A stretch of DNA of 11,023 nucleotides from a virus: UHGV virus genome UHGV-0053823; one strand, 5' to 3'. The translations under genes were made by a program, and so were the position numbers. The notes below the pieces were generated by a model. The model made no database searches. It saw only the letters and a program-made list of their open reading frames with translations, and had not been told where the DNA came from. Below are positions 1 through 10,997 of the stretch, in pieces (the first letter of the stretch is position 1; every line of letters starts with the position of its first letter).

Positions 1-361
1 CCATATCTAACCGGACATTCAGAGCCATAAGCATTCCTTCAATAATACCTTCCGCTTTATAAAGCCTTTTACCAATAAGCCCATCAGAACATCTATGCTT
101 ACGTGCAAGAGCCATAAATGTCATTCCACCTACGTAATAATCCACCAACAAATCGTGCAAATACTGATTATTCTTGTTTAATCGTGCCATACAACCACAA
201 ATTATCATGGCGTCATCATCAGAACACTGAGGACGTGATTTCACTTTAGTCGGGATTAATCCTTTAAAACCAGCAGCTATCGAGGGCCATGTTACATCTT
301 CATGATTATTTGCTGCCCATGCCCCCCATCGCTCAAGAACCATCTGGATATCACGCGCCAT
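1..361 (-). CDS. Antitermination protein Q (phage 82/DLP12 QuuD-like type), 3' end truncated by window edge
   Basis: Minus-strand frame from ATG at 361..359 is open to position 1 (about 120 codons, no stop). Translation begins [37 protein letters not shown]..., which matches my recollection of E. coli prophage Q antiterminators. The start lies 8 nt upstream of the rusA stop, the usual rusA-Q arrangement. Confidence 0.7.
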
Positions 362-722
362 CGTTACCACCTCTGATTTCGTAAATCTTCACGCCCAGCC
401 GTCCACCTGGCACAGGCTGACCGCGCACAATATTGATTTCATCAAACTGCTCGTCATCAATGAGCACTTCCGCATGCGTCAGCGCATCCAGCGGTGCTTT
501 CAGAATGTTGTCCAGGTCACGGCGGCGCTTATCCGGTGGTTCTGCAATAATTTTTATTGCCAGCCGTCCGGACAGGCTTAATTTCAGCCGCTGCTGGCGA
601 ACAATAAGCGCCACTGCCCGGCGATAACGCTTTCCCGTTTCCGATATAAAGTACGTTCCACCACGACGTCGCCAGTAGGTGTTCACCGTTGGCGGGTAAG
701 GCAAAACAAACTCTATACGCAT
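351..722 (-). CDS. rusA: Holliday junction resolvase RusA
   Basis: 123-aa ORF with ATG start and AAGAGG Shine-Dalgarno 6 nt upstream. Sequence ([14 protein letters not shown]..., [29 protein letters not shown]) is characteristic of the RusA endonuclease family, including the catalytic D-rich core. Confidence 0.85.
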
Positions 723-734
723 CAGTAACCTCTT

Positions 735-1784
735 TTACCCGAGCACGCCGGTTGCAAAGGCGTGATCAAGAAAACGAAAAATTAAATCAACCTGGGAACC
801 ATGCTTTTCTTCGAACGCCAGCGGATCCGCATGAAGTTCGTTGTGATGTTCCCGGCACAACGGTAGCGTGAAAATATCGTGGGCCTTTGTTCCCATCCCT
901 CCCTGACCGTGACCAATCAGGTGATGGGGATCGTCGGCTGGCTGACCACAACACGCACACGGCTGTGTCTTCACCCAGCGCGTATATTTCTCATTTACCC
1001 AACGGCGACGTTTAGGTCGCCTCATGAAAGATTCCGGAGACTCTGGATCAACGGTGATGCTTACCACCGTCTTTTCCTGTGATGGGTTTTGTTGCTGGTG
1101 GGCGTGAGGCAACGGTGCAAGATTTTTTGTGCGCTGTTTCAATATGCTGGTGGCGGTCTGCTCTCCCGGTACGATGTCGCTTTCGCGGTACAAGGAGCAG
1201 ATTTTTTCCGCACGTAACCCCAGAGAACGACGTAATACTGCCTCCGGAAGCGCGTCCGCCACCTGATTGCGGACCGCCCACCAGGATAATTCAGCCAGAG
1301 ATAATTCACGCTCCTGCGTACCGCTTATTGCGTGACCGATGACGTCAATCATCCATGCTGACAGGTTTTGATGAGCAAGTTGCTCAAGTGATTCGGATGT
1401 CTGGTCACGCAGCTGGTTGTCGCAGTGCCAGCACAACACCATTGCGCCGGTACCATAACGGTGAATAACGGTTTCGCTGTGATGATAATCGCCGTGTGGC
1501 CACTGGCAGGATTTAATATGGCGCAACAGCCAGTCAGACAATGCACCAGCACCACCAGCAGCACGAATTACCCGTGCGTTACTGAAAAACGGCAGCAATG
1601 TTTTGTCTTCCACCAGCGGCTGGCGAACGGCAGGGACGACTCCGGATGGCAGGCCGCACATGCTTTTCGGTTCCGGCTCCACCAGCACTCGAGGATTGTG
1701 AAATACCTGCATGGATTCACGACCTGGCTTAAGGACCACCAGCCCGAGTTCCGGTACCAGAACAGGTCGAAGTAATACCCGCAC
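735..1784 (-). CDS. DUF968 family phage protein (YdfU-like) with C-terminal Cys/His HNH-like motif
   Basis: 349-aa ORF ending 13 nt before rusA. C-terminal region CACCGQPADDPHHLIGHGQGGMGTKAHDIFTLPLCREHHNELH resembles the DUF968/YdfU family found beside Q in Qin-type prophages. The start is a non-ATG codon (GTG at 1784), so the true start is uncertain. Confidence 0.6.
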   Translation of the reverse strand: MRVLLRPVLVPELGLVVLKPGRESMQVFHNPRVLVEPEPKSMCGLPSGVVPAVRQPLVEDKTLLPFFSNARVIRAAGGAGALSDWLLRHIKSCQWPHGDYHHSETVIHRYGTGAMVLCWHCDNQLRDQTSESLEQLAHQNLSAWMIDVIGHAISGTQERELSLAELSWWAVRNQVADALPEAVLRRSLGLRAEKICSLYRESDIVPGEQTATSILKQRTKNLAPLPHAHQQQNPSQEKTVVSITVDPESPESFMRRPKRRRWVNEKYTRWVKTQPCACCGQPADDPHHLIGHGQGGMGTKAHDIFTLPLCREHHNELHADPLAFEEKHGSQVDLIFRFLDHAFATGVLG

Positions 1785-1785
1785 G

Positions 1786-2058
1786 TTACCTCCAGATCCG
1801 TTGCTGGAATGTGCGGGACGGACGCGGTGGGCGTTCGGAGTAAGGGAGCCTGACGGAGATTATCCAGTGACGGTAGTCAAGGCTAAGGGCTTTTTTAACC
1901 TCGCATCCGCGCCTACGGTAACACTGAATCAGCCGTTCGGCCTGTTCTTCAGTGCATGGGGGATGCTGATACCAGTCATATTTGAATGCGTGCGAACGCC
2001 GCCCGTGCCTGCTGGCACGAACGGTATCAGAATTGTGTAATTTGGTCTTGTGCGCCAT
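1786..2058 (-). CDS. Hypothetical small basic protein upstream of the DUF968 gene (start uncertain; longest frame reaches 2112 with a TTG start)
   Basis: Open frame 1786..2112 with a non-repetitive, protein-like sequence (HAFKYDWYQHPPCTEEQAERLIQCYRRRGCEVKKALSLDYRHW). First ATG is at 2058; no convincing SD. Stop lies 2 nt before the DUF968 start codon. Confidence 0.25.
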   Translation of the reverse strand: MAHKTKLHNSDTVRASRHGRRSHAFKYDWYQHPPCTEEQAERLIQCYRRRGCEVKKALSLDYRHWIISVRLPYSERPPRPSRTFQQRIWR

Positions 2059-2128
2059 CTGTTTTCTCTGCTGGCGCAGCAGGTGCCAGTTGTTCAGGCT
2101 GGCGTGCGGCAATATTGTCTCTGATTTC

Positions 2129-2158
2129 TGTTGTCGTCAACAGGCAGCGTGCTATCAT
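2129..2158 (+). promoter_or_regulatory. Putative sigma70 promoter of the TA operon with an overlapping palindromic operator
   Basis: TTGTCG (about 2131-2136), 16-nt spacer, TATCAT (about 2153-2158), roughly 36 nt upstream of the antitoxin ATG. Inverted repeat TGTTG-N4-CAACA (about 2129-2142) overlaps the -35, as expected for an autoregulated TA promoter. Confidence 0.3.
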
Positions 2159-2193
2159 CGAATAGTGTTCTATCCTACTCCGTGAGGTTTACC

Positions 2194-2451
2194 ATGCGTA
2201 CAACCCAACAATTCAGCATTACATTAACTAACGAGATGGCTGACATGGTGCGCGCCCGTGTGGCTTCCGGTGCCTATGCTTCAGAAAGCGAGGTCATTCG
2301 TGAAGGGCTTCGCGCACTGAATGAGCGCGATAAAGCAATCGAAGCGTGGTTAACGCATTCAGCCGCCCCCGCTCTTGATTCTATCCGCGAAAATCCAAAC
2401 AACGGACGCTCCATTTCACAGGTTCGCGCCGCGATTCGATCCGGGAAGTAA
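2194..2451 (+). CDS. Type II antitoxin, ribbon-helix-helix ParD-like
   Basis: 85-aa ORF from internal ATG 2194 with GAGG SD 6 nt upstream (the track ORF from 2131 is probably an over-extension). About 85 aa, sitting 5 nt upstream of a ParE/RelE-like toxin gene. The N-terminal region (FSITLTNEMADMVRARVASGAYASESEVIREGLRAL) looks like an RHH DNA-binding fold. Confidence 0.75.
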   Translation: MRTTQQFSITLTNEMADMVRARVASGAYASESEVIREGLRALNERDKAIEAWLTHSAAPALDSIRENPNNGRSISQVRAAIRSGK

Positions 2452-2456
2452 TCTGC

Positions 2457-2756
2457 ATGACATATGAAGTCATCATTACCCCCGAGGCCGAACAGCAGAT
2501 AATAAACCTGCACAGATATATAACGGAGAAAGCAGGAAGCGTCATTGCTGACAATTATGCCAATGCGCTTCTTGATTATCTTGATGGGTTTTCTACATTC
2601 CCGCATCGGGGCAATAAACGCGATGATATTCGCCAGGGAATGCGGGTAACTCACTTCCGCCACAGAACGATTATTGCTTTTGCCGTTGACGGCAATAAAG
2701 TCTTTATCGCGGGTATTTATCATGGTGGGCAAAGCTATGAAGCCGATTTCTTATAA
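2457..2756 (+). CDS. Type II toxin, ParE/RelE superfamily
   Basis: 99-aa ORF starting 5 nt after the antitoxin stop. Size and C-terminal pattern (RVTHFRHRTIIAFAVDGNKVFIAGIYHGGQSYEADF) are typical of ParE/RelE-fold toxins; antitoxin-toxin gene order fits. Confidence 0.75.
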   Translation: MTYEVIITPEAEQQIINLHRYITEKAGSVIADNYANALLDYLDGFSTFPHRGNKRDDIRQGMRVTHFRHRTIIAFAVDGNKVFIAGIYHGGQSYEADFL

Positions 2757-2836
2757 ACTTTTACCCACATCATTCCGGTGTTAAAATAAACCGTCCGCCC
2801 CCTCTCTTACTGGCGGATTCGTAGGCTATATAAATC

Positions 2837-2873
2837 AAAGATCCCGGCTCGTGTATGCGTCAGGATCTTTTTT
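2837..2873. terminator. Probable bidirectional intrinsic terminator between convergent genes
   Basis: Stem AAAGATCC / GGATCTTT (8 bp) around an 18-nt loop, followed by TTTTTT on the plus strand and a U-rich tract on the minus strand. Lies between the toxin stop (2756) and the end of the minus-strand operon (2881). Confidence 0.45.
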
Positions 2874-2880
2874 CGGTGAT

Positions 2881-2964
2881 TTATCCCCAGCGGCAAATCG
2901 CATACACCACCAGCGCCACCGCCATTGCAATTCCTACCGTTGTGAATGCTTCAGGCCAGGTCAT
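2881..2964 (-). CDS. 27-aa hydrophobic peptide (MTWPEAFTTVGIAMAVALVVYAICRWG), predicted single-pass membrane peptide
   Basis: Too short for the ORF track. Its ATG overlaps the DUF551 gene stop (ATGA) and has a GGAGGA SD 9 nt upstream. Hydrophobic core of about 20 residues flanked by charged or aromatic ends; followed by the terminator hairpin. Confidence 0.4.
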   Translation of the reverse strand: MTWPEAFTTVGIAMAVALVVYAICRWG

Positions 2965-3623
2965 CGTAAAATATCCTCCACGCTTATCAGTCCGTTCCGC
3001 TCCAGATAACTCATCGCCTTATCCGGTAATTTGCAGTCTGGCTTCGCTTTCCTCAGTTGACTGACCAATTGCTTAACCAGCATGGTTAATTCGTTAACCT
3101 GTTTTCCGGATGCTTGTGGATTGTCAGTTTTACCAGAAGTGTCGGTACAGTCGGCGTTCCCACTCTTCTCCTCCTGCGGCGGTTCCGGTAGCGGCATCCA
3201 GTGAGTTGCTTGCTCAATACCATTACCCGGCTTAATCGTTGCATCTCCGCGCCGGAATGTGCTTCCGGTATAGCGTGCGGAGCATATTAGCGGCTCAACC
3301 AGATCACTATCGAAATTCACCGAAATAAGTACGTTCTGATTCTTTTTCGGCATTCGCTCACTACAGCTTATCCAACCATCCGGAGTTACCGAAACTGGCG
3401 ACGCGGCATATAGTGGTTTAGGCGATATCTCCGCGCGTTTTGCGTATGCTTCAACTGTGTCAGGGTTAAACAGGATTATGTTTTCACCGCATTCCCACGC
3501 CACCGGCTCTGCTTCCAGCGATGCCAGCGCAATACGTGCAATTTGTCGAATCTCATCGTTAACGTTGCACATGCGCGGGTCATTGACGTACTGCTCAATG
3601 CGTTCTCTGCTAATAGTGGCCAT
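2961..3623 (-). CDS. DUF551 domain phage protein with Ea22-like N-terminal segment
   Basis: 220-aa ORF containing the WISCSERMPKKNQNVLISV ... THWMPLPEPP signature of DUF551. ATG start with AAAGGAGAG SD, 1 nt after the upstream stop. Confidence 0.7.
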   Translation of the reverse strand: MATISRERIEQYVNDPRMCNVNDEIRQIARIALASLEAEPVAWECGENIILFNPDTVEAYAKRAEISPKPLYAASPVSVTPDGWISCSERMPKKNQNVLISVNFDSDLVEPLICSARYTGSTFRRGDATIKPGNGIEQATHWMPLPEPPQEEKSGNADCTDTSGKTDNPQASGKQVNELTMLVKQLVSQLRKAKPDCKLPDKAMSYLERNGLISVEDILR

Positions 3624-3624
3624 C

Positions 3625-3957
3625 TCACTCTCCTTTGATGCGAATGCCAGCGACGCGTAGTGCGTGTTCTAAGTCAATCAGGCAAAGCCAACTGCCATTT
3701 TCTTTAGGTATCATGACATGCCGCTTATCAGCATTTATTGGGTGCCCATATCGAAGGTCGTAGCGAGTCGGTAATTGAACTTCCCTCGCTTCCAGTTCTG
3801 CAATGTGTTTGTTTTTAGCTTCTAGTTCATCCAGCAGCGCCAGCACAACCTGCGGTGTGACTTTCATACGAAATGCCAGCAATTTTTGTGGTGTGGCTAC
3901 TATTTTTATTGCTTCTGCCGCCTCACGCAGTGCCTGATAGTTAATTTCGGTTGTCAT
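3625..3957 (-). CDS. Ead/Ea22-like protein (short form)
   Basis: 110-aa ORF with ALREAAEA and VVLALLDELEAKNKHIAELEAR coiled-coil motifs typical of Ead/Ea22-like early proteins. Start overlaps the upstream stop (ATGA). Confidence 0.6.
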   Translation of the reverse strand: MTTEINYQALREAAEAIKIVATPQKLLAFRMKVTPQVVLALLDELEAKNKHIAELEAREVQLPTRYDLRYGHPINADKRHVMIPKENGSWLCLIDLEHALRVAGIRIKGE

Positions 3958-4832
3958 GCCACCACCTCTTCGAATTTCAACTCCAATTGATCACCCCAGA
4001 TTTCACATGATTCGGAACACGAACCAGTATCAAACCGCCTGGCTTGCACCATCGCCTGATACAAATTACTGTAGTCACTGTCGGCATACATTCTGGCAAT
4101 CCCGTCAAGCGTCAGGTGGCCACGGTACATAACGTCTTTTCCTGTTCTGCGATGACCATCCCTGACGTGTTTGCCTGTAACCAGTTCATTAAAAAACCGC
4201 ATCAGACCAGGTTCGTCTTTACATGCAAGCCCCAGCTTTTGCGTTGACTTTTTGATGCAGAAAACACAGTTCCCGAGGTGCTCTGGGATTTGCAAATCAA
4301 AAGGTTGTGCTCGCCACCACCGGATAACATCCGACTTATCAAAATGTGACAGTTCGGCAAGATACCGGACGCCCGGTTTCGGTTTCAGCCTACGGTGTTC
4401 GTCCGCACGAATACCCAGCCATGTGATGTAATTCCCTCGTCCGAAATGGTCATCGCAATATTTCGTGAAAGGGGTGAGTTTTAGCCTGTCAGTACAGAAC
4501 GCGCCGCCGATGTATGGCGTGCCGTACTTTTTAACCATATCCATAAACGGTTTAAGCACCGGCATTCGCGTCTGAATATCCTTTGGTTCCCATTCCGTAT
4601 AACTATTTGGCTGCCCAAGCTCTGGATTTATATCGACCTGCAACACGGTTAGTGGAATATCCCAGAACTTCACGACTTCCCGAATAAATCGGTATGTCAG
4701 CGGGTGTTCACATCCCGTATCCATGAATATGTAATGAACGTTTTCACCTGCCTTTCTGCGTTGCTCCATAAGGTGAACGAGATACGCCGATGTACGACCG
4801 CCTGAAAAACTCACAACATGATGAGCGCTCAT
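3954..4832 (-). CDS. PAPS reductase-like / PP-loop ATP pyrophosphatase family enzyme
   Basis: 292-aa ORF with N-terminal PP-loop motif VVSFSGGRTSAYL and C-terminal cysteine pairs (NCVFC, GSCSESC) suggesting a metal or Fe-S site. ATG start at 4832. Confidence 0.7.
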   Translation of the reverse strand: MSAHHVVSFSGGRTSAYLVHLMEQRRKAGENVHYIFMDTGCEHPLTYRFIREVVKFWDIPLTVLQVDINPELGQPNSYTEWEPKDIQTRMPVLKPFMDMVKKYGTPYIGGAFCTDRLKLTPFTKYCDDHFGRGNYITWLGIRADEHRRLKPKPGVRYLAELSHFDKSDVIRWWRAQPFDLQIPEHLGNCVFCIKKSTQKLGLACKDEPGLMRFFNELVTGKHVRDGHRRTGKDVMYRGHLTLDGIARMYADSDYSNLYQAMVQARRFDTGSCSESCEIWGDQLELKFEEVVA

Positions 4833-4961: not shown

Positions 4962-5183
4962 ATGGATCAAAATGAAAAAATTAAAATCGCATTTCTTGCC
5001 GCTTCAAACGCCACGGCTTTATTTATTAACACTCCGCACTATCGCCAAAAATTAGAAGAAAAGCCGGGACTAAAGAAAACAACAATGAACCCAGAGTTCA
5101 TTTTTAAGAACGAATTTAGTCTTCACATGAAGCGCCTTTCTGAAATTCTAAATGCTCATCAAGCCAGTCCAGATCGGGATTGA
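4962..5183 (+). CDS. Hypothetical 73-aa protein on the opposite strand (candidate moron)
   Basis: ATG at 4962 preceded by a near-perfect SD (TAAGGAGGgtgaaATG, 5-nt spacing). AT-rich coding sequence unlike its flanks. The 3' end overlaps the 3' end of the convergent 187-aa gene by 68 nt. No recognisable domain. Confidence 0.35.
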   Translation: MDQNEKIKIAFLAASNATALFINTPHYRQKLEEKPGLKKTTMNPEFIFKNEFSLHMKRLSEILNAHQASPDRD

Positions 5184-5679
5184 TACGCACCAGTTCGAGT
5201 GAATATTCCATGGCATCCCTGGCGTACTCTTTCGGGATGCCATTTTCTTCAAGAATATCCTGAACTTTCTGGCGAATAACCGGAACCAGGAAAAGAAGTT
5301 TTGTTTCACGATTGCCAAGTAGTTCTTCCAGATCGCGCGTAGCCTCTTCCAGATCGCGCGTGGCCTCTTCTGGATAGCGATTGCCCGGTATTGATTCCTG
5401 CGAATTATTCAGTCTTTCAACAGAATTAATTGATTTATCGTTTTCTGTTATATTGCGTTTGATGTTTTGTTGACCTTTATTAAGGCAGCAATTTTGAATA
5501 TGGTCCTTGTGCTTTTCATTATCATAAGCATACAGCCCGACAAAAATATCCCGCAAGTTTCGGGAGATATTTTCCAGATTCGCCTTTGGTTCTTTTCTTA
5601 AATCAACCACCGATAAATGAGCTTTAAGCGTATCCGCAGCTACTTTCTGAATGTCCTCGGGTAAATCTTTAAATTGCAT
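5116..5679 (-). CDS. Hypothetical 187-aa protein with an internal EATRDLE tandem repeat
   Basis: ATG start with GAGGA SD 8 nt upstream; AT-rich, charged, probably helical protein. No family recognised. Confidence 0.55.
   Translation of the reverse strand: MQFKDLPEDIQKVAADTLKAHLSVVDLRKEPKANLENISRNLRDIFVGLYAYDNEKHKDHIQNCCLNKGQQNIKRNITENDKSINSVERLNNSQESIPGNRYPEEATRDLEEATRDLEELLGNRETKLLFLVPVIRQKVQDILEENGIPKEYARDAMEYSLELVRINPDLDWLDEHLEFQKGASCED
5325..5379. repeat. In-frame 21-bp tandem repeat (two units plus a degenerate third) inside the 187-aa gene
   Basis: CTTCCAGATCGCGCGTAGCCT followed by CTTCCAGATCGCGCGTGGCCT (1 mismatch), then a partial third unit CTTCTGGATAGCG. Encodes the repeated EATRDLE heptad on the minus strand. 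Confidence 0.8.
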
Positions 5680-5755
5680 AATATATCCTCATAGAACGGT
5701 GTATTTTCTCGTGAAATGTGAGCGATATGTCGTGACGTCCCTGTCACAGATTTCA

Positions 5756-6577
5756 TCAGACTGAGAATGTGCCGATGAAGGTTAAGATATCTGCTTCTTC
5801 GAAACGCTCTTTCAGCAGGTCACGGAACTCTTTGGCAATTTCTTCTTCCGCAGCTTCAATGCGCACGATACGTAGTACCAGAACAGGTTGCTCGCTGGTC
5901 AGAATACTTAGACGCAGGGTGAACTCACGGTTGCTCAGGCCCTCGAATGGGATGCATTCAAAGCGGAAAGTGGCAGGCATGATTTCCTTACTTTTAGCCT
6001 CCACTGATTCCATAACTGAGCGGCTACCGCTGAAGTTTTGTTCTTCATATTCAGCACTGCGTTTTGCATCGATAGTCAGACGACGGACAGCAGAGATAGC
6101 CTGTTTGATATCCAGTACATTACCGTCGCTGTCATAGGCCGTGAGGAAGTCGGCCCAGTCTTCCAGCCATTCAGCGAGAGATTTCTGGAGTTGTTTTTTG
6201 CCGTCCACGTCACGTAATGCGCGATATGGTGATGTGGCTTTCAGTTCCAGCAGTGCCTTGTTGTCAGCATGTCCTGGTTGATCCAGAGTGCCGATATTGA
6301 ACACAGTGACCGCTTTCATCGTTTCCGCGTTAATGAAGCAACGAGAGAACCCATCGACATAACCTTTGCTGTATTCAACAAAGTCATCAATACTGGTTGT
6401 GGTCATGACTCCACGGAAACGAAAGCGTTCTGTCATGAATCGCTCCAGACTTTCAATATTTACATTGTCCGGCAATAACGTAACGGGGCATTCCGTAAGC
6501 GGCAAATTTTCACCAGAAAAAGCAGTAGTGGTGAGCTTTACAATTTCTTTAATGGCATTGCTATCTAACTGAGACAT
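5756..6577 (-). CDS. Hypothetical 273-aa phage protein (size and context reminiscent of YfdQ/DUF2303; unverified)
   Basis: Long ORF with ATG start and a weak SD; non-repetitive sequence. Family assignment is tentative, based on length and on being downstream of a roughly 115-aa gene as in the yfdP-yfdQ pair. Confidence 0.6.
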   Translation of the reverse strand: MSQLDSNAIKEIVKLTTTAFSGENLPLTECPVTLLPDNVNIESLERFMTERFRFRGVMTTTSIDDFVEYSKGYVDGFSRCFINAETMKAVTVFNIGTLDQPGHADNKALLELKATSPYRALRDVDGKKQLQKSLAEWLEDWADFLTAYDSDGNVLDIKQAISAVRRLTIDAKRSAEYEEQNFSGSRSVMESVEAKSKEIMPATFRFECIPFEGLSNREFTLRLSILTSEQPVLVLRIVRIEAAEEEIAKEFRDLLKERFEEADILTFIGTFSV

Positions 6578-6646
6578 ATATATTTACCTGAGAAATAAAT
6601 TATTTATGGTTGATATCCCCTGATGTTTTCAGGAGGGAGTGATTAT

Positions 6647-6994
6647 TTAGCGTAAAACAGCGTCATGTTGGCCCTGTTTATCGAAAAGCTGTCCCTGGTC
6701 TTTCTGGAACAAAGTAAGCTCACCACCTTTATTTACAAACATCGGGGTGTTAGTCGTGTCTTCTTCTGATTTACTACCACGCATTGTCGGGCGTGTGAAT
6801 TTTAGTTTATGGGAAACTGATACGCGATTTTCATCAAGTGAAGATAATTCGAATTCAACACATACCTTTCCTTTTTTGTTTGTGCTGTTTACGCCAAAGG
6901 CAACTTCACTTAATACCGCACCAAGTTTATTAACAAATACCCCGCCGTCGAGGTCGTTAATGAAAACATTAACATCTGTCTGATGCTGACTCAT
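6647..6994 (-). CDS. Hypothetical 115-aa phage protein (possibly YfdP-like; unverified)
   Basis: ATG start with GGAG SD about 9 nt upstream; same strand and spacing as the neighbouring operon genes. Confidence 0.55.
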   Translation of the reverse strand: MSQHQTDVNVFINDLDGGVFVNKLGAVLSEVAFGVNSTNKKGKVCVEFELSSLDENRVSVSHKLKFTRPTMRGSKSEEDTTNTPMFVNKGGELTLFQKDQGQLFDKQGQHDAVLR

Positions 6995-7068
6995 ATTGAT
7001 ATCTCCGTGTAGAGAGTGTATTGAGGCTTCAGTTGTTTACTGAATTTAAAGCCTGGTTTGTTTGTGAA

Positions 7069-7656
7069 TTAAAAACTATCGCCGCCGTACTGCCAGTAAC
7101 CCGGGTCGTCCGTGTGATTCGGGTTTGCGTTTTTGCTGCGATTGTCTTTGTCTTTGAGAGTGGAAGCTATATTTGCTACAGTTTCTGGTTTCTTTCCTTC
7201 TGCCTTTTCTTTCAGGGTTTGCCCTGTTTCTGCAATGAATGGAATACGGATTTCCATCTGGTAACTGTCTGCGCCAGTCTTTTTGTTTATGGTTAATACT
7301 TTCTGTAGCACCAACCCGATTTTCTTTCCGTGGAATTCAGGGGCAACGTATTTACTGACGGAAACCATATGTTGCGTTAACTGCCTGATTCCTGCACATC
7401 CCATCATTGCATGAACAATATTTGCACCAAACTTGTTTTCCGTTCCGTCATTTTTCTGAACACAAACACTGAGATACTGAATTTTGCGTCCGTCGTCGGA
7501 TTCTCCAGAAAACTCAATGAATCGGGCACCTTTTTCTGATTGCTTGAGTTCTGCTTCAGTAATGGTAATGATATGCGCACCTGTTTCGGTAATGAAACCA
7601 CCTTGTCCGGCGGTCAGTGCTGCTTCTTCGTTATAAGTAAAAATCACTTCATCCAT
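7069..7656 (-). CDS. Hypothetical 195-aa protein immediately downstream of exo
   Basis: ATG start 7 nt after the exo stop. C-terminal region is Lys-rich then acidic/aromatic, ending ...DDPGYWQYGGDSF. No confident family assignment. Confidence 0.55.
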   Translation of the reverse strand: MDEVIFTYNEEAALTAGQGGFITETGAHIITITEAELKQSEKGARFIEFSGESDDGRKIQYLSVCVQKNDGTENKFGANIVHAMMGCAGIRQLTQHMVSVSKYVAPEFHGKKIGLVLQKVLTINKKTGADSYQMEIRIPFIAETGQTLKEKAEGKKPETVANIASTLKDKDNRSKNANPNHTDDPGYWQYGGDSF

Positions 7657-7662
7657 TAGTTA

Positions 7663-8346
7663 TTAACCCCCCCATTGTTCTCCAAATACAAAACCAATTT
7701 CAGCCAGGGCTTCGTCCATTTTTTCGATGAACTCCGGCACCATCTCATCAAAACTCGCCATGTACTTTTCATCCCGTTCGACCACGACATAATGCAGGCC
7801 TTCTCGCTTCATGCGCGGGTCGTAGTTGGCAAAGTACCAGGCGTCCTTGTCTGTAACCCACATGCTGAATTGCACCTGAGCCATATAAGCGGGTTTGATA
7901 GCATCAAAGCCGCCAAGTCTGAACTTCATGAAGTCGCGGGAAGTGAAGGGACATTTCAGTTCAAGACCGTTGCCGTCGCTGCATAAACCGTCGGGAGAGC
8001 AGGCGGTGCGCATGCTTTCGTCACGAAAAATTATGGGCGTTTCCGAGACGGTAATATCCGCGATAAATTCGAAGAGGGCACGGGCATCATCTTCATACTG
8101 CTTTCCCCATGCGAGCGACTTAGCGTTAACTTCCGGTGCCACGCCGGTACAAACTTCAGCCAGCAGGGTGTGGAAGTATGAGATTTTGGTATCAGGCCAT
8201 TTGCTGCCGGAACGTGGCTTTGCTATCACATTGTGAACTTCTGAAGCCGTGATAATGCCGAGCCTGAGTTTGTGCCACCCATCATCGTCCTGGCTGAGTG
8301 TGGTAATATCCACGCCAGTTCGCTGGAGAATAATTTCTGGCGTCAT
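7663..8346 (-). CDS. exo: Lambda-type 5'-3' exonuclease (Red-alpha / Exo)
   Basis: 227-aa ORF that matches lambda Exo, as I recall it, along nearly its whole length ([11 protein letters not shown]..., [56 protein letters not shown]-terminus [10 protein letters not shown]). Start overlaps the annealase stop (ATGA). Confidence 0.9.
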
Positions 8347-9293
8347 GATACGGCCTCGCTGTTATTTTCCGTGGTGGCGTGAACTTTCGCTTCCGCCGTG
8401 GCCTTGTTTCTGGCAGCTTTCTTTTTGACGAAAGCCAGCGCTTTGACAGCTTCTTCCTGATTGAGATTTTCATGTGATGCAATCGTGCGACCGAATATTT
8501 GGGAACACAGGGGGATCAGGTCATCCCATGTTTTGTTAATTTCGCTCATAGCCTGAGTGATCTCATTAATAATCTCATCTGATGCGGGAGTGACGTCACG
8601 CTCAGGGGGGTGATCAGCATTCAGGATGATACCTTCCCCGGCCTGAGTGTTCAGGTAGTCGATAGCCGTATCCAGGCGATCACGACGGGGCCAGTATTTG
8701 CTGGCGCGTTTAACAATGACTTTGCGGGCCATTTCATCGGGGAAACTATCCCACGGACTACTTCCCCCGTTCTGTCCGGCCTTGCTGCACGCTCTGATGG
8801 CTTCGATTGCCTCGTTGCTCATCTCTTCGGTCAGATAGTCGCCTTCGGATGTTTTGACGACACAATAACCGCCAATACGTGCGCCCCTGTCGACAAACGG
8901 GTTGTATTTGTGAGTGGGGGCGCAGTCAATGCCGTTGGACTCGTAAATGTCCTTCTCGTAAACAAGTTTGCATTGCCCCCACTGAATGGCTCCTGTGACC
9001 TGCGCCAGATGCAGAAGTCCCATATAACTGATATCCAGGCATACAGCACCTTTTCGCGGGACCAGATACGCCAGCTTACTGGCGGGGTTCAGGGTTATAC
9101 CAATGGCTGCAACATTGATGATAGCGTTCTGTGCGCTGGCTAGATTTCCCTGTGCTGTTTTAGCCAGAAAGTCATTTTTCTGGAATTGCTGAATTGCAAA
9201 CTGACTTTCCTTCGCCCATGTCAGCGTTGGTTCAGTCAATGCCTCGCAGAAAAATCGCTCCTGCTGTTTAACAAATTCAACGATATCGAACAT
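8343..9293 (-). CDS. ssDNA annealing protein: RecT-family core with a lambda Bet-like C-terminal domain
   Basis: Core motifs match RecT ([41 protein letters not shown] versus RecT SKAGNNGPWVTHWEEMAKKTAIRRLFKYLP). The C-terminal 70 aa ([16 protein letters not shown]...[20 protein letters not shown]...[15 protein letters not shown]) match the lambda Bet C-terminus as I recall it. Start placed at internal ATG 9293 (AGGA upstream, 16 nt after the Gam-like stop); the track's ATG at 9362 would overlap the upstream gene by 53 nt. Confidence 0.85.
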
Positions 9294-9309
9294 TTTTTGG
9301 TCCTGAAAA

Positions 9310-9591
9310 TCAGAAAGGACAGGGGGAGAATTTCCTCTCCCATTCTTCTTCCGCCCGTGCATAGGCGATCGCTGAGATATAATCGTTGTACGCCTCTTCA
9401 GCTTTATCGCCAGTAAGTGCCAGCTGGGCTTCTTTGGGTAAAAAAAGGCTGCTCATAAGCAATGGTTTATCGGGGAACATGCTGATAAGCTCCAGCGCCC
9501 GATCATCAATCCATTTATCCTTTTCATCCTGAATTTGCTGATTAACCCAGCGACGCTCCTCTATGCGGTCGCAGGTTAGGTATGCGTTCAT
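9310..9591 (-). CDS. Putative Gam-like RecBCD inhibitor
   Basis: 93-aa ORF with AGGAG SD 7 nt upstream. N-terminus MNAYLTCDRIEERRW resembles the start of the short form of lambda Gam (MNAYYIQDRLEAQSW), and it sits directly upstream of the annealase and exo as gam does in lambda. Similarity beyond the N-terminus is weak. Confidence 0.45.
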   Translation of the reverse strand: MNAYLTCDRIEERRWVNQQIQDEKDKWIDDRALELISMFPDKPLLMSSLFLPKEAQLALTGDKAEEAYNDYISAIAYARAEEEWERKFSPCPF

Positions 9592-10187: not shown

Positions 10188-10832
10188 TTAAAGATTAACG
10201 TTGAAACCAAAGCGGGAAGATTTTTCCGATGTACGGGAAATATCCAGCAATTTACGGCGCATTTCTTCCGTCAGATGTTTGAAAGCGTTAAATTCGGCAA
10301 CAGCGGCGTCAACGTTATAGCCCTTGCTGTGTAGTTCGTTGAGGATGCGCATAGTTGGGCTTGGCATATCGAAGAGCACGGAAGCATCAAGGCTGATAAC
10401 TTTGCGATCAACATAATTCATCGTGGCGTAGGGGTGATGCTCAGAAAACCACGATAAAGGGAAATTGATGTTCATCGCAGGAGAAGACAGGGCCAGTTGT
10501 TTCTGTTCCCATAGTTGTTTTTCCATGCGATCGAATTCAGCGATGTAGGCTTCTTTGAAAGCTGCGGCTTTTTTACCAGTGAATCCCATTACCAGGAAGA
10601 CGAAGCCGTTTTTGGTGATTTGATAGGCGTTATAGGTATTACCCCGGTGTTCGAATTTAACCCGCGAAAAGTTGCTGGTTAAGAATTGTTCAGAGCATTC
10701 AAGGGATTCTATTTTCTGAACAACATGGTGATGCTGCTTCTCAAAGAACTCTGCGATGTCAATTGACGTAGTGATGGCATTGCCGTTTTCAATAGTTACG
10801 GATGGGCGAGAAAGGGGAGATATAGTAGCCAT
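10188..10832 (-). CDS. Phage regulatory protein, Rha family
   Basis: 214-aa ORF from internal ATG 10832 preceded by a consensus SD (AAGGAGG, 9-nt spacing). N-terminal domain ITTSIDIAEFFEKQHHHVVQKIESLE ... YQITKNGFVFLVMGFTGKKAAAFKEAYIAEFDRMEKQL matches the Rha domain. Confidence 0.75.
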   Translation of the reverse strand: MATISPLSRPSVTIENGNAITTSIDIAEFFEKQHHHVVQKIESLECSEQFLTSNFSRVKFEHRGNTYNAYQITKNGFVFLVMGFTGKKAAAFKEAYIAEFDRMEKQLWEQKQLALSSPAMNINFPLSWFSEHHPYATMNYVDRKVISLDASVLFDMPSPTMRILNELHSKGYNVDAAVAEFNAFKHLTEEMRRKLLDISRTSEKSSRFGFNVNL

Positions 10833-10997
10833 GGTGGCAGCCTCCTTGATTGGTGATTGATAACCACCGCCGGAGGTCCTAAACTCGCTGGCGGTGGACT
10901 GTACAGGGTTAGGACTACTGGCAATCAAGGGAACCAGCCCGACCGAAGTCGGCCCCATACAGCCCACCATTGATAAGATGTGCGTGCATGTCGATAC

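Follow-up and report, generated by a model that had tools for sequence, protein, structure and literature searches.

What do two adjacent early genes do for a phage when they are handed on together from genome to genome, and does the company of recombination genes tell us anything about it? The question is raised by a stretch of viral DNA of 11,023 nucleotides (nt; UHGV virus genome UHGV-0053823, the whole of which is referred to here as the window), in which a minus-strand gene for a protein of 115 amino acids (aa) is followed by one for 273 aa, close to the gene (exo) for a lambda-type exonuclease. Our analysis leaves hardly any doubt that the two are the phage yfdP-yfdQ cassette, i.e. a PF27127/phrog_204 protein followed by a DUF2303 protein, and it identifies yfdP-yfdQ as a two-gene unit of many Gammaproteobacteria phages that is switched on early. 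The finding as such is not new, since both the pair and its location have been described before, likewise as of unknown function, and sequenced phages encode proteins identical to the two in the window. The pair and its spacer are laid out as follows:

6994..6647, minus strand: yfdP homologue, 115 aa; ATG start with a GGAG ribosome-binding site (RBS) 8 nt upstream
6578..6646, minus strand: spacer of 69 nt between yfdP and yfdQ; weak AGGT RBS 8 nt before the yfdQ ATG
6577..5756, minus strand: yfdQ homologue (DUF2303), 273 aa; ATG start

Results

The 273-aa protein matches PF10065 (DUF2303) over its full length (216.3 bits against a cutoff of 26.6, E=5.8e-64; residues 28-271 aligned to positions 25-269 of the 269 in the profile) as well as phrog_210 (E=9e-111), and in BLASTP it shares 52% identity over 273 aa with YfdQ from the CPS-53 prophage of Escherichia coli K-12 (E=2e-108); it also matches an entry of the PDB, 9o7m, that is entitled 'YfdQ Protein' (E=6e-45). 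Its 115-aa neighbour is 58% identical to K-12 YfdP (BLASTP, E=4e-49) and matches phrog_204 (E=1.3e-44). No match to it was obtained in the Pfam copy scanned, which has no PF27127 model; PF27127 is, however, precomputed on a cluster representative (P0121) that is 99% identical to it. The likeness to yfdP-yfdQ (DUF2303) that an earlier note had drawn from gene sizes and order thus holds up for both proteins, with significant profile and BLASTP matches to the respective families. In RefSeq, both open reading frames (ORFs) are annotated identically in E. coli O157:H7 7.1_Anguil, a record with 100% identity over window positions 5000-7700, and carry the names WP_046426081.1 'hypothetical protein' (115 aa) and WP_046426079.1 'YfdQ family protein' (273 aa). 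Since each has many homologues (53 clusters for the smaller protein; 675 word-index hits or 1445 clusters at 50% identity for the larger), both are real genes rather than chance ORFs.

Beyond these assignments, NCBIfam scans and two single-protein viral scans gave no matches, lenient Pfam scans of all alignment members brought up no recurrent secondary family, and PDB sequence searches with YfdP (single sequence and profile) returned noise only. Matches of YfdP to ChlamPMP_M and to a Cmr7b-like protein were below threshold and judged spurious, and hhalign of the YfdP against the YfdQ profile found no relationship between the two. Two proteins join one of the families to another in a single chain, DUF2303 with PF27127 in an E. 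coli protein of 166 aa (P0169) and DUF2303 with Ead/Ea22 in one of 398 aa (P0002); a frameshift or read-through is the probable origin of these fusions, which are then no natural architectures.

We followed the pair through 114 loci: 80 from IMG/VR, 24 from GTDB species genomes (Enterobacterales, Marinobacter, Alcanivorax, Pontibacterium, Haemophilus and Suttonella), five from annotated phages (Xanthomonas CP2, Vibrio VvAW1, 1.151.O and 34E29.1, Pseudomonas pAN) and five from distant metagenomic viral contigs. At 112 of them a yfdP homologue lies directly upstream of yfdQ and on the same strand (79/80 IMG/VR, 23/24 genome loci and 5/5 in either of the small sets), and virulent Xanthomonas, Vibrio and Pseudomonas phages are among the carriers. 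Co-occurrence in other genomes, on which the comparison with yfdP-yfdQ also hinged, is therefore nearly complete. As for the two exceptions, one locus is cut at a contig end and the other, in Caviibacterium pharyngocola (L100, 1025-1831), is a genuine absence and the only intact locus with yfdQ yet no upstream yfdP. There, yfdQ is preceded by a 280-aa gene that by eye is DNA methyltransferase-like and followed by a family-A DNA polymerase fragment, and its product reads PKH where the family motif is PGH.

In a set of 35 non-redundant loci the spacer between the two genes ranges from -1 to 69 nt (median 42; no longer than 10 nt in nine), and pairwise identities among YfdP proteins track those among YfdQ proteins (r=0.84), while flanking genes are recognisably common to few pairs of loci (13% downstream, 2% upstream). 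Because YfdP and YfdQ diverge in step whereas their flanks are rarely shared, we see them as a two-gene unit that is mobile through mosaic phage genomes; the genes are inherited as one unit and very probably act together, and a cassette pattern of this kind strongly implies that their products work together. On plasmids the pair occurs in only 23 of 72,556 records, mostly megaplasmids or phage-sized records, and the idea of a plasmid leading-region gene pair was rejected on this count.

AlphaFold2 (AF2) models, with confidence given as predicted local distance difference test (pLDDT), describe YfdP with confidence (pLDDT 86.7): a long helix near the N-terminus (8-38) leads into an antiparallel sheet of three long strands (43-87), after which the chain ends in a disordered tail. 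In this tail the peptide QGQLF (residues 100-104) lies at the border of order, pLDDT dropping there from 85 to 48, and 21 of 27 non-redundant YfdP homologues have a tail motif of the form Qxx[L/M/F][F/L]. QGQLF resembles QL[S/D]LF, the bacterial beta-clamp-binding motif; residues 100-104 are a clamp-binding-like peptide of the Qxx[L/M]x?[F/L] type within a flexible region. The same peptide could equally be one that docks on YfdQ.

YfdQ, an acidic protein (isoelectric point 4.8), is modelled with lower confidence (pLDDT 74) as an N-terminal helix, a beta-alpha-beta-beta-beta unit (57-111), further helices, a disordered yet conserved segment (170-196) and a C-terminal beta-beta-beta-alpha-beta unit. 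Disorder of segment 170-196 in a monomer model is what would be expected if it folds only in an assembly. Across 61 diverse sequences Gly96, His103, Gln131 and Gly269 are invariant, and Glu45, Arg51, Arg55, Pro101, Glu139, Asp140, Trp141 and Arg165 are among the positions conserved to at least 90%. The motifs RxRFRG (51-56), PGH (101-103; in the loop before the last strand of the 57-111 unit), Gln131 and EDW (139-141) are all present in the window protein.

Entry 9o7m contains 36 chains of a 274-aa YfdQ homologue, the example chain being 'C', whereas chains A and B are another entity. Its YfdQ chain is 93-99% identical to ORF37-type proteins of CP2-like virulent Xanthomonas/Xylella phages, and the 36-chain assembly, known for this homologue only, suggests a large oligomer. 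The entry is not part of a virion data set. None of the other CP2 proteins compared with it (the capsid protein, ORF36 and, joined into one sequence, those of early, nin-type recombination and lysis genes) has a match there, and in the virion preprint on PhiXacm4-11, which is a CP2-like phage, the deposited codes differ and the YfdQ protein goes unmentioned. A literature text search for the code 9o7m found no match either. When the YfdQ model was run in Foldseek against the PDB (releases to 2026-04-08, without 9o7m), the best hit was an Hsp90 N-domain at E=0.04 and a template-modelling (TM) score of 0.14, which was rejected as noise; altogether, fold and profile searches produced no match pointing to a mechanism.

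Within the window, the pair is surrounded by phage genes of the same strand, listed here in order of transcription (SSB, single-stranded DNA-binding protein):

10970..10188, minus strand: Rha-family regulator, first in transcription order of the early-left operon
between Rha and GamL in transcription order, minus strand: small kil-like gene
9591..9310, minus strand: GamL
9362..8343, minus strand: RecT
8346..7663, minus strand: exo, a YqaJ/lambda-type exonuclease
7656..7069, minus strand: SSB-like (DUF669-type) gene, 195 aa, between exo and yfdP; phrog_743 'single strand DNA binding protein', E=2e-66
5679..5116, minus strand: gene of 187 aa downstream of yfdQ; different PHROGs match its N- and C-terminal halves
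3954-4832, minus strand: PAPS-reductase-like protein, 292 aa, in the exo-ea22 accessory region, after the 187-aa gene
after the PAPS-reductase-like gene, minus strand: Ea22 and DUF551 genes, last in the operon's transcription order

Flanked on its own strand by Rha/kil/gamL/recT/exo on one side and by ea22/DUF551 on the other, the pair occupies an early-left (pL) position; a cI-like repressor is found beyond the window's right end in the matching RefSeq record, and a scan of the spacer's coding strand for promoters and terminators found no site resembling either. The best phage matches of the window are ArgO145 and phages converting for Shiga toxin (Stx) 2a, with 93% identity over 66% of the window, and its YfdQ is 100% identical in vB_EcoP_phi367 and about 97% identical in TL-2011c, P13374, VT2phi_272 and PA2. 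The pair belongs to an early-left (pL-type) operon, in a lambdoid prophage that is ArgO145-like and of the Stx type, and is transcribed leftward along with gam, recT and exo.

It does not, as the earlier note had it, directly follow exo: the 195-aa gene comes between exo and the 115-aa gene. This SSB-like gene, which found no match in Pfam or NCBIfam scans and bears a DUF669 label in close RefSeq relatives, is not a conserved partner of the cassette, given that upstream neighbours are common to just 2% of locus pairs. On the other side of the pair, the 187-aa gene (no Pfam match) fills the place that an HD 5'-deoxynucleotidase related to YfdR/YfbR, directly adjoining yfdQ, holds at 14 of 36 other non-redundant loci (jackhmmer); jackhmmer seeded with K-12 YfdR found no such gene among the window ORFs. 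The 187-aa protein looks composite, with residues 1-80 matching phrog_1363, residues 107-184 matching phrog_25397 and an exact tandem duplication (EEATRDL-EEATRDL) in between. The PAPS-reductase-domain protein further downstream also matches the phosphorothioation models SspD (E=1e-15) and DndC of PADLOC.

In the same 36 loci, what occurs most often among the three same-strand genes upstream is a Peptidase_S24/helix-turn-helix repressor (15/36), so that the pair often stands at the head of an early-left operon. YqaJ (three loci), RecT and DnaQ-like exonucleases (two each) and Erf (one) are less common upstream, and SSB, Rv2179c-like 3'-5' exonucleases and DNA methylases occur downstream at three loci each. 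At some loci the neighbours include known counter-defence genes: GamL in the window and, each at a single locus, a Tad2-like protein and an inhibitor of RecBCD that is T7 Gp5.9-like. An annealing protein (such as RecT in the window or Erf in CP2) is found within three same-strand genes at only about 5 of the 36 loci, which makes adjacency to a recombination module in the window poor evidence for a role in recombination. What had been proposed from the position beside exo stands as far as the neighbourhood goes (one gene away) but is weak as a pointer to recombination. The cassette is independent of the type of recombination module and of yfdR, and it is a strict two-gene unit in temperate as well as virulent phages.

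Comparison with described systems fits this picture. In CPS-53 (KpLE1), yfdP (b2359) and yfdQ (b2360) are of the same families, order and strand and encode 120 and 274 aa rather than 115 and 273; there, yfdR-yfdS-yfdT follow and the surrounding early operon is deleted, whereas the window pair sits inside an intact gam-recT-exo...ea22 operon without yfdR downstream. ArgO145 resembles the window in that the cluster coexists with a complete recombination module, and from LLS/ST64B/ArgO145-type clusters in general the window differs by lacking the third, HD-phosphohydrolase gene, which is no difference of kind. Phage CP2 of Xanthomonas citri, a virulent podophage of another bacterial order, has a homologous pair (ORF38-ORF37) in the same order and with the same spacing (hhalign of ORF38 against the YfdP profile, 99.5%, E=1e-22; ORF37 against DUF2303, E=6e-48), yet there the pair precedes an Erf-type module, while in the window it follows a RecT-type one. 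ORF36 of CP2 (L083, 3933-5468, 511 aa), located between yfdQ and the Erf-exo-HNH-SSB block, has a sub-threshold DUF1351 match and no counterpart in the window. Lambda itself is not known to carry yfdP or yfdQ; its exo-xis accessory region fills the same place in the pL operon, with exo on one side and ea22/xis on the other, without any sequence relationship. Expression of that region blocks initiation of host replication.

The window has further features besides the pair. At 10887-10974 (minus strand) it contains a C4 antisense RNA (Rfam RF01695; score 78.9 bits, gathering score 45, E=1.5e-14), a P1/P7 immI-type regulator of antirepressor expression, which overlaps the 5' end of the long Rha-family ORF call (10970..10188). 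The first 51 residues of the ORF match the Ash family, and the Rha domain begins only at residue 67. Translation of Rha may therefore really start from an internal ATG near 10832 (MATISPL...), which would place the C4 RNA immediately before the gene. Amid minus-strand phage genes, the plus strand encodes a ParD antitoxin (2131-2451; PF03693, E=2e-7) and a ParE toxin (2457-2756; PF05016, E=6e-10). Two genes that in lambdoid phages normally belong to the nin (early-right) region are found near the left end:

722..351, minus strand: RusA
1784..735, minus strand: DUF968/HNH-like gene

Both are part of window positions 1-3170 and adjoin the early-left operon at its DUF551/Ea22 end, without an intervening int/xis. 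No single place in a complete E. coli genome covers over 71% of the window, and the best-record matches end at about 3170. With nin-type genes next to the early-left operon and matches ending at about 3170, the window looks like a mosaic or rearranged prophage junction.

Discussion

That the pair's function is unknown, as the earlier note stated, agrees with the literature (PMC12315714), and no paper in the literature searched gives yfdP or yfdQ a biochemical function. There are genetic leads, though. In K-12, multicopy yfdQRS or yfdQRT inhibits DnaA/oriC-dependent initiation, for which yfdQ is required and yfdP dispensable; the DnaA binder is YfdR, the part of YfdQ being left unresolved (PMC4776307). 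Deletion of yfdQ raises sensitivity to hydrogen peroxide and methyl methanesulfonate (MMS), while deletion of yfdQRST has no phenotype in normal growth (both in PMC4776307, the former as cited there). YfdQ production is further reported to trigger plaque formation by another prophage (preprint 10.1101/413146), and work on K-12 regards yfdPQ as one operon, with SrsR binding upstream of it (PMC9181523). Among lambdoid phages, clusters of the yfdP/yfdQ/yfbR(yfdR) type are described in early-left operons of LLS (gp39/gp38/gp37), ST64B (gp37/36/35) and ArgO145 (PMC12315714). The block of host replication initiation by the exo-xis region of lambda parallels the reported multicopy yfdQRS/T effect, as a functional analogy only.

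With these leads in mind, we favour takeover as the role of the module: YfdQ, as an oligomer with YfdP for a partner or adaptor, would act on the replication or repair of host DNA. We put the probability of this reading at roughly 0.35. It draws on the pair's place at the start of early operons, the overexpression and deletion phenotypes in K-12 and the tail motif. YfdQ would assemble into a large homo-oligomer, and YfdP would be its small obligate partner or adaptor; the alpha+beta core of YfdP would be folded, and the flexible peptide at its C-terminus, Qxx[L/M/F][F/L], may dock either on YfdQ or on a host protein. One candidate for the latter is the host beta sliding clamp, given the likeness of the peptide to clamp-binding motifs. 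The module, presumably made in the first minutes after induction or infection, would then act on host DNA replication or repair without being a core part of Red/RecT-type recombination. A bolder version, in which YfdQ represents a megadalton class with an unseen fold and the YfdP tail recruits the assembly to the beta clamp so that host replication is shut down or redirected right after infection, is to our minds a long shot.

An accessory role in recombination or repair, or even an unrecognised annealing or mediator protein, with YfdQ forming rings or filaments on DNA together with SSB, exonuclease and annealing protein, is what the surroundings in the window would suggest, where the pair follows gam-recT-exo and an SSB-like gene. 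Similar company is kept in CP2 (Erf, YqaJ exonuclease, HNH endonuclease and SSB behind the pair) and in VvAW1 and Vibrio phage 34E29.1 (SSB just downstream, exonucleases upstream), the 36-chain oligomer recalls annealing-protein rings and filaments (that chains A and B of 9o7m are possibly nucleic acid is speculation), yfdQ deletion causes MMS sensitivity and lambdoid phages of the LLS type carry the cluster while having no recognisable recombination module. Yet it is the presence of the cluster both in these phages and in ArgO145 with its full module that makes yfdPQ unlikely to be hidden recombination proteins (PMC12315714), and we found no sequence-profile or fold similarity to annealing-protein families (RecT/Redbeta, Erf, Rad52-like). 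Taken with the scarcity of annealing proteins near the pair, we consider this role rather doubtful. The frequent YfdR neighbour invites the thought of an enzyme of nucleotide or nucleic-acid metabolism, YfdQ being metal-dependent via His103 and Glu139-Asp140 and YfdP a regulatory or specificity subunit; these residues are invariant or nearly so, the cassette itself does without yfdR at many loci including the window, and we rate such an enzyme as improbable.

Alternatively, the assembly may sequester or inactivate a host defence factor early, i.e. serve as a counter-defence (anti-immunity) module. For this speak the place of the pair at the start of early operons in temperate and virulent phages, amid variable accessory genes, its being essentially phage-specific and the counter-defence neighbours at some loci (GamL, T7 Gp5.9-like, Tad2-like). 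The broad conservation of the pair (1445 clusters) and its fixed motifs are, however, at odds with counter-defence genes, which are usually patchy and fast-evolving. Plasmids hardly ever carry the pair, conjugative ones with their many anti-defence genes included, and neither protein has a match in PADLOC, a library of defence systems rather than anti-defence proteins. We therefore think of counter-defence as an unlikely explanation, too. Last, the pair might be decaying or functionless prophage cargo that is kept only by linkage, as CPS-53 is cryptic and its yfdQRST deletion is without phenotype in normal growth. This is effectively refuted by the conservation pattern: frames are intact at 112 of 114 loci with identities of 33-100%, virulent phages included, in which dead cargo could not persist for long, motifs are invariant and the two proteins diverge in parallel while flanks exchange. 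Having weighed these options, we return to takeover of host replication or repair as the preferred reading.

For phage biology, the pair matters as one of the commoner conserved unknowns of early regions, and one that many Stx2a-converting phages from pathogenic E. coli carry. To what is on record, our analysis adds the strict yfdP+yfdQ two-gene unit, its independence from recombination-module type and yfdR and its occurrence in virulent phages; the invariant His103, the EDW motif, the YfdP tail motif and the deposited 36-chain structure offer handles for experiments. Once known, the function would clarify how host DNA replication and repair are handled at induction, the step that drives Shiga-toxin production, and should recruitment to the clamp turn out to be true, it would amount to a widespread, previously unrecognised takeover mechanism in temperate and virulent phages of Gammaproteobacteria.
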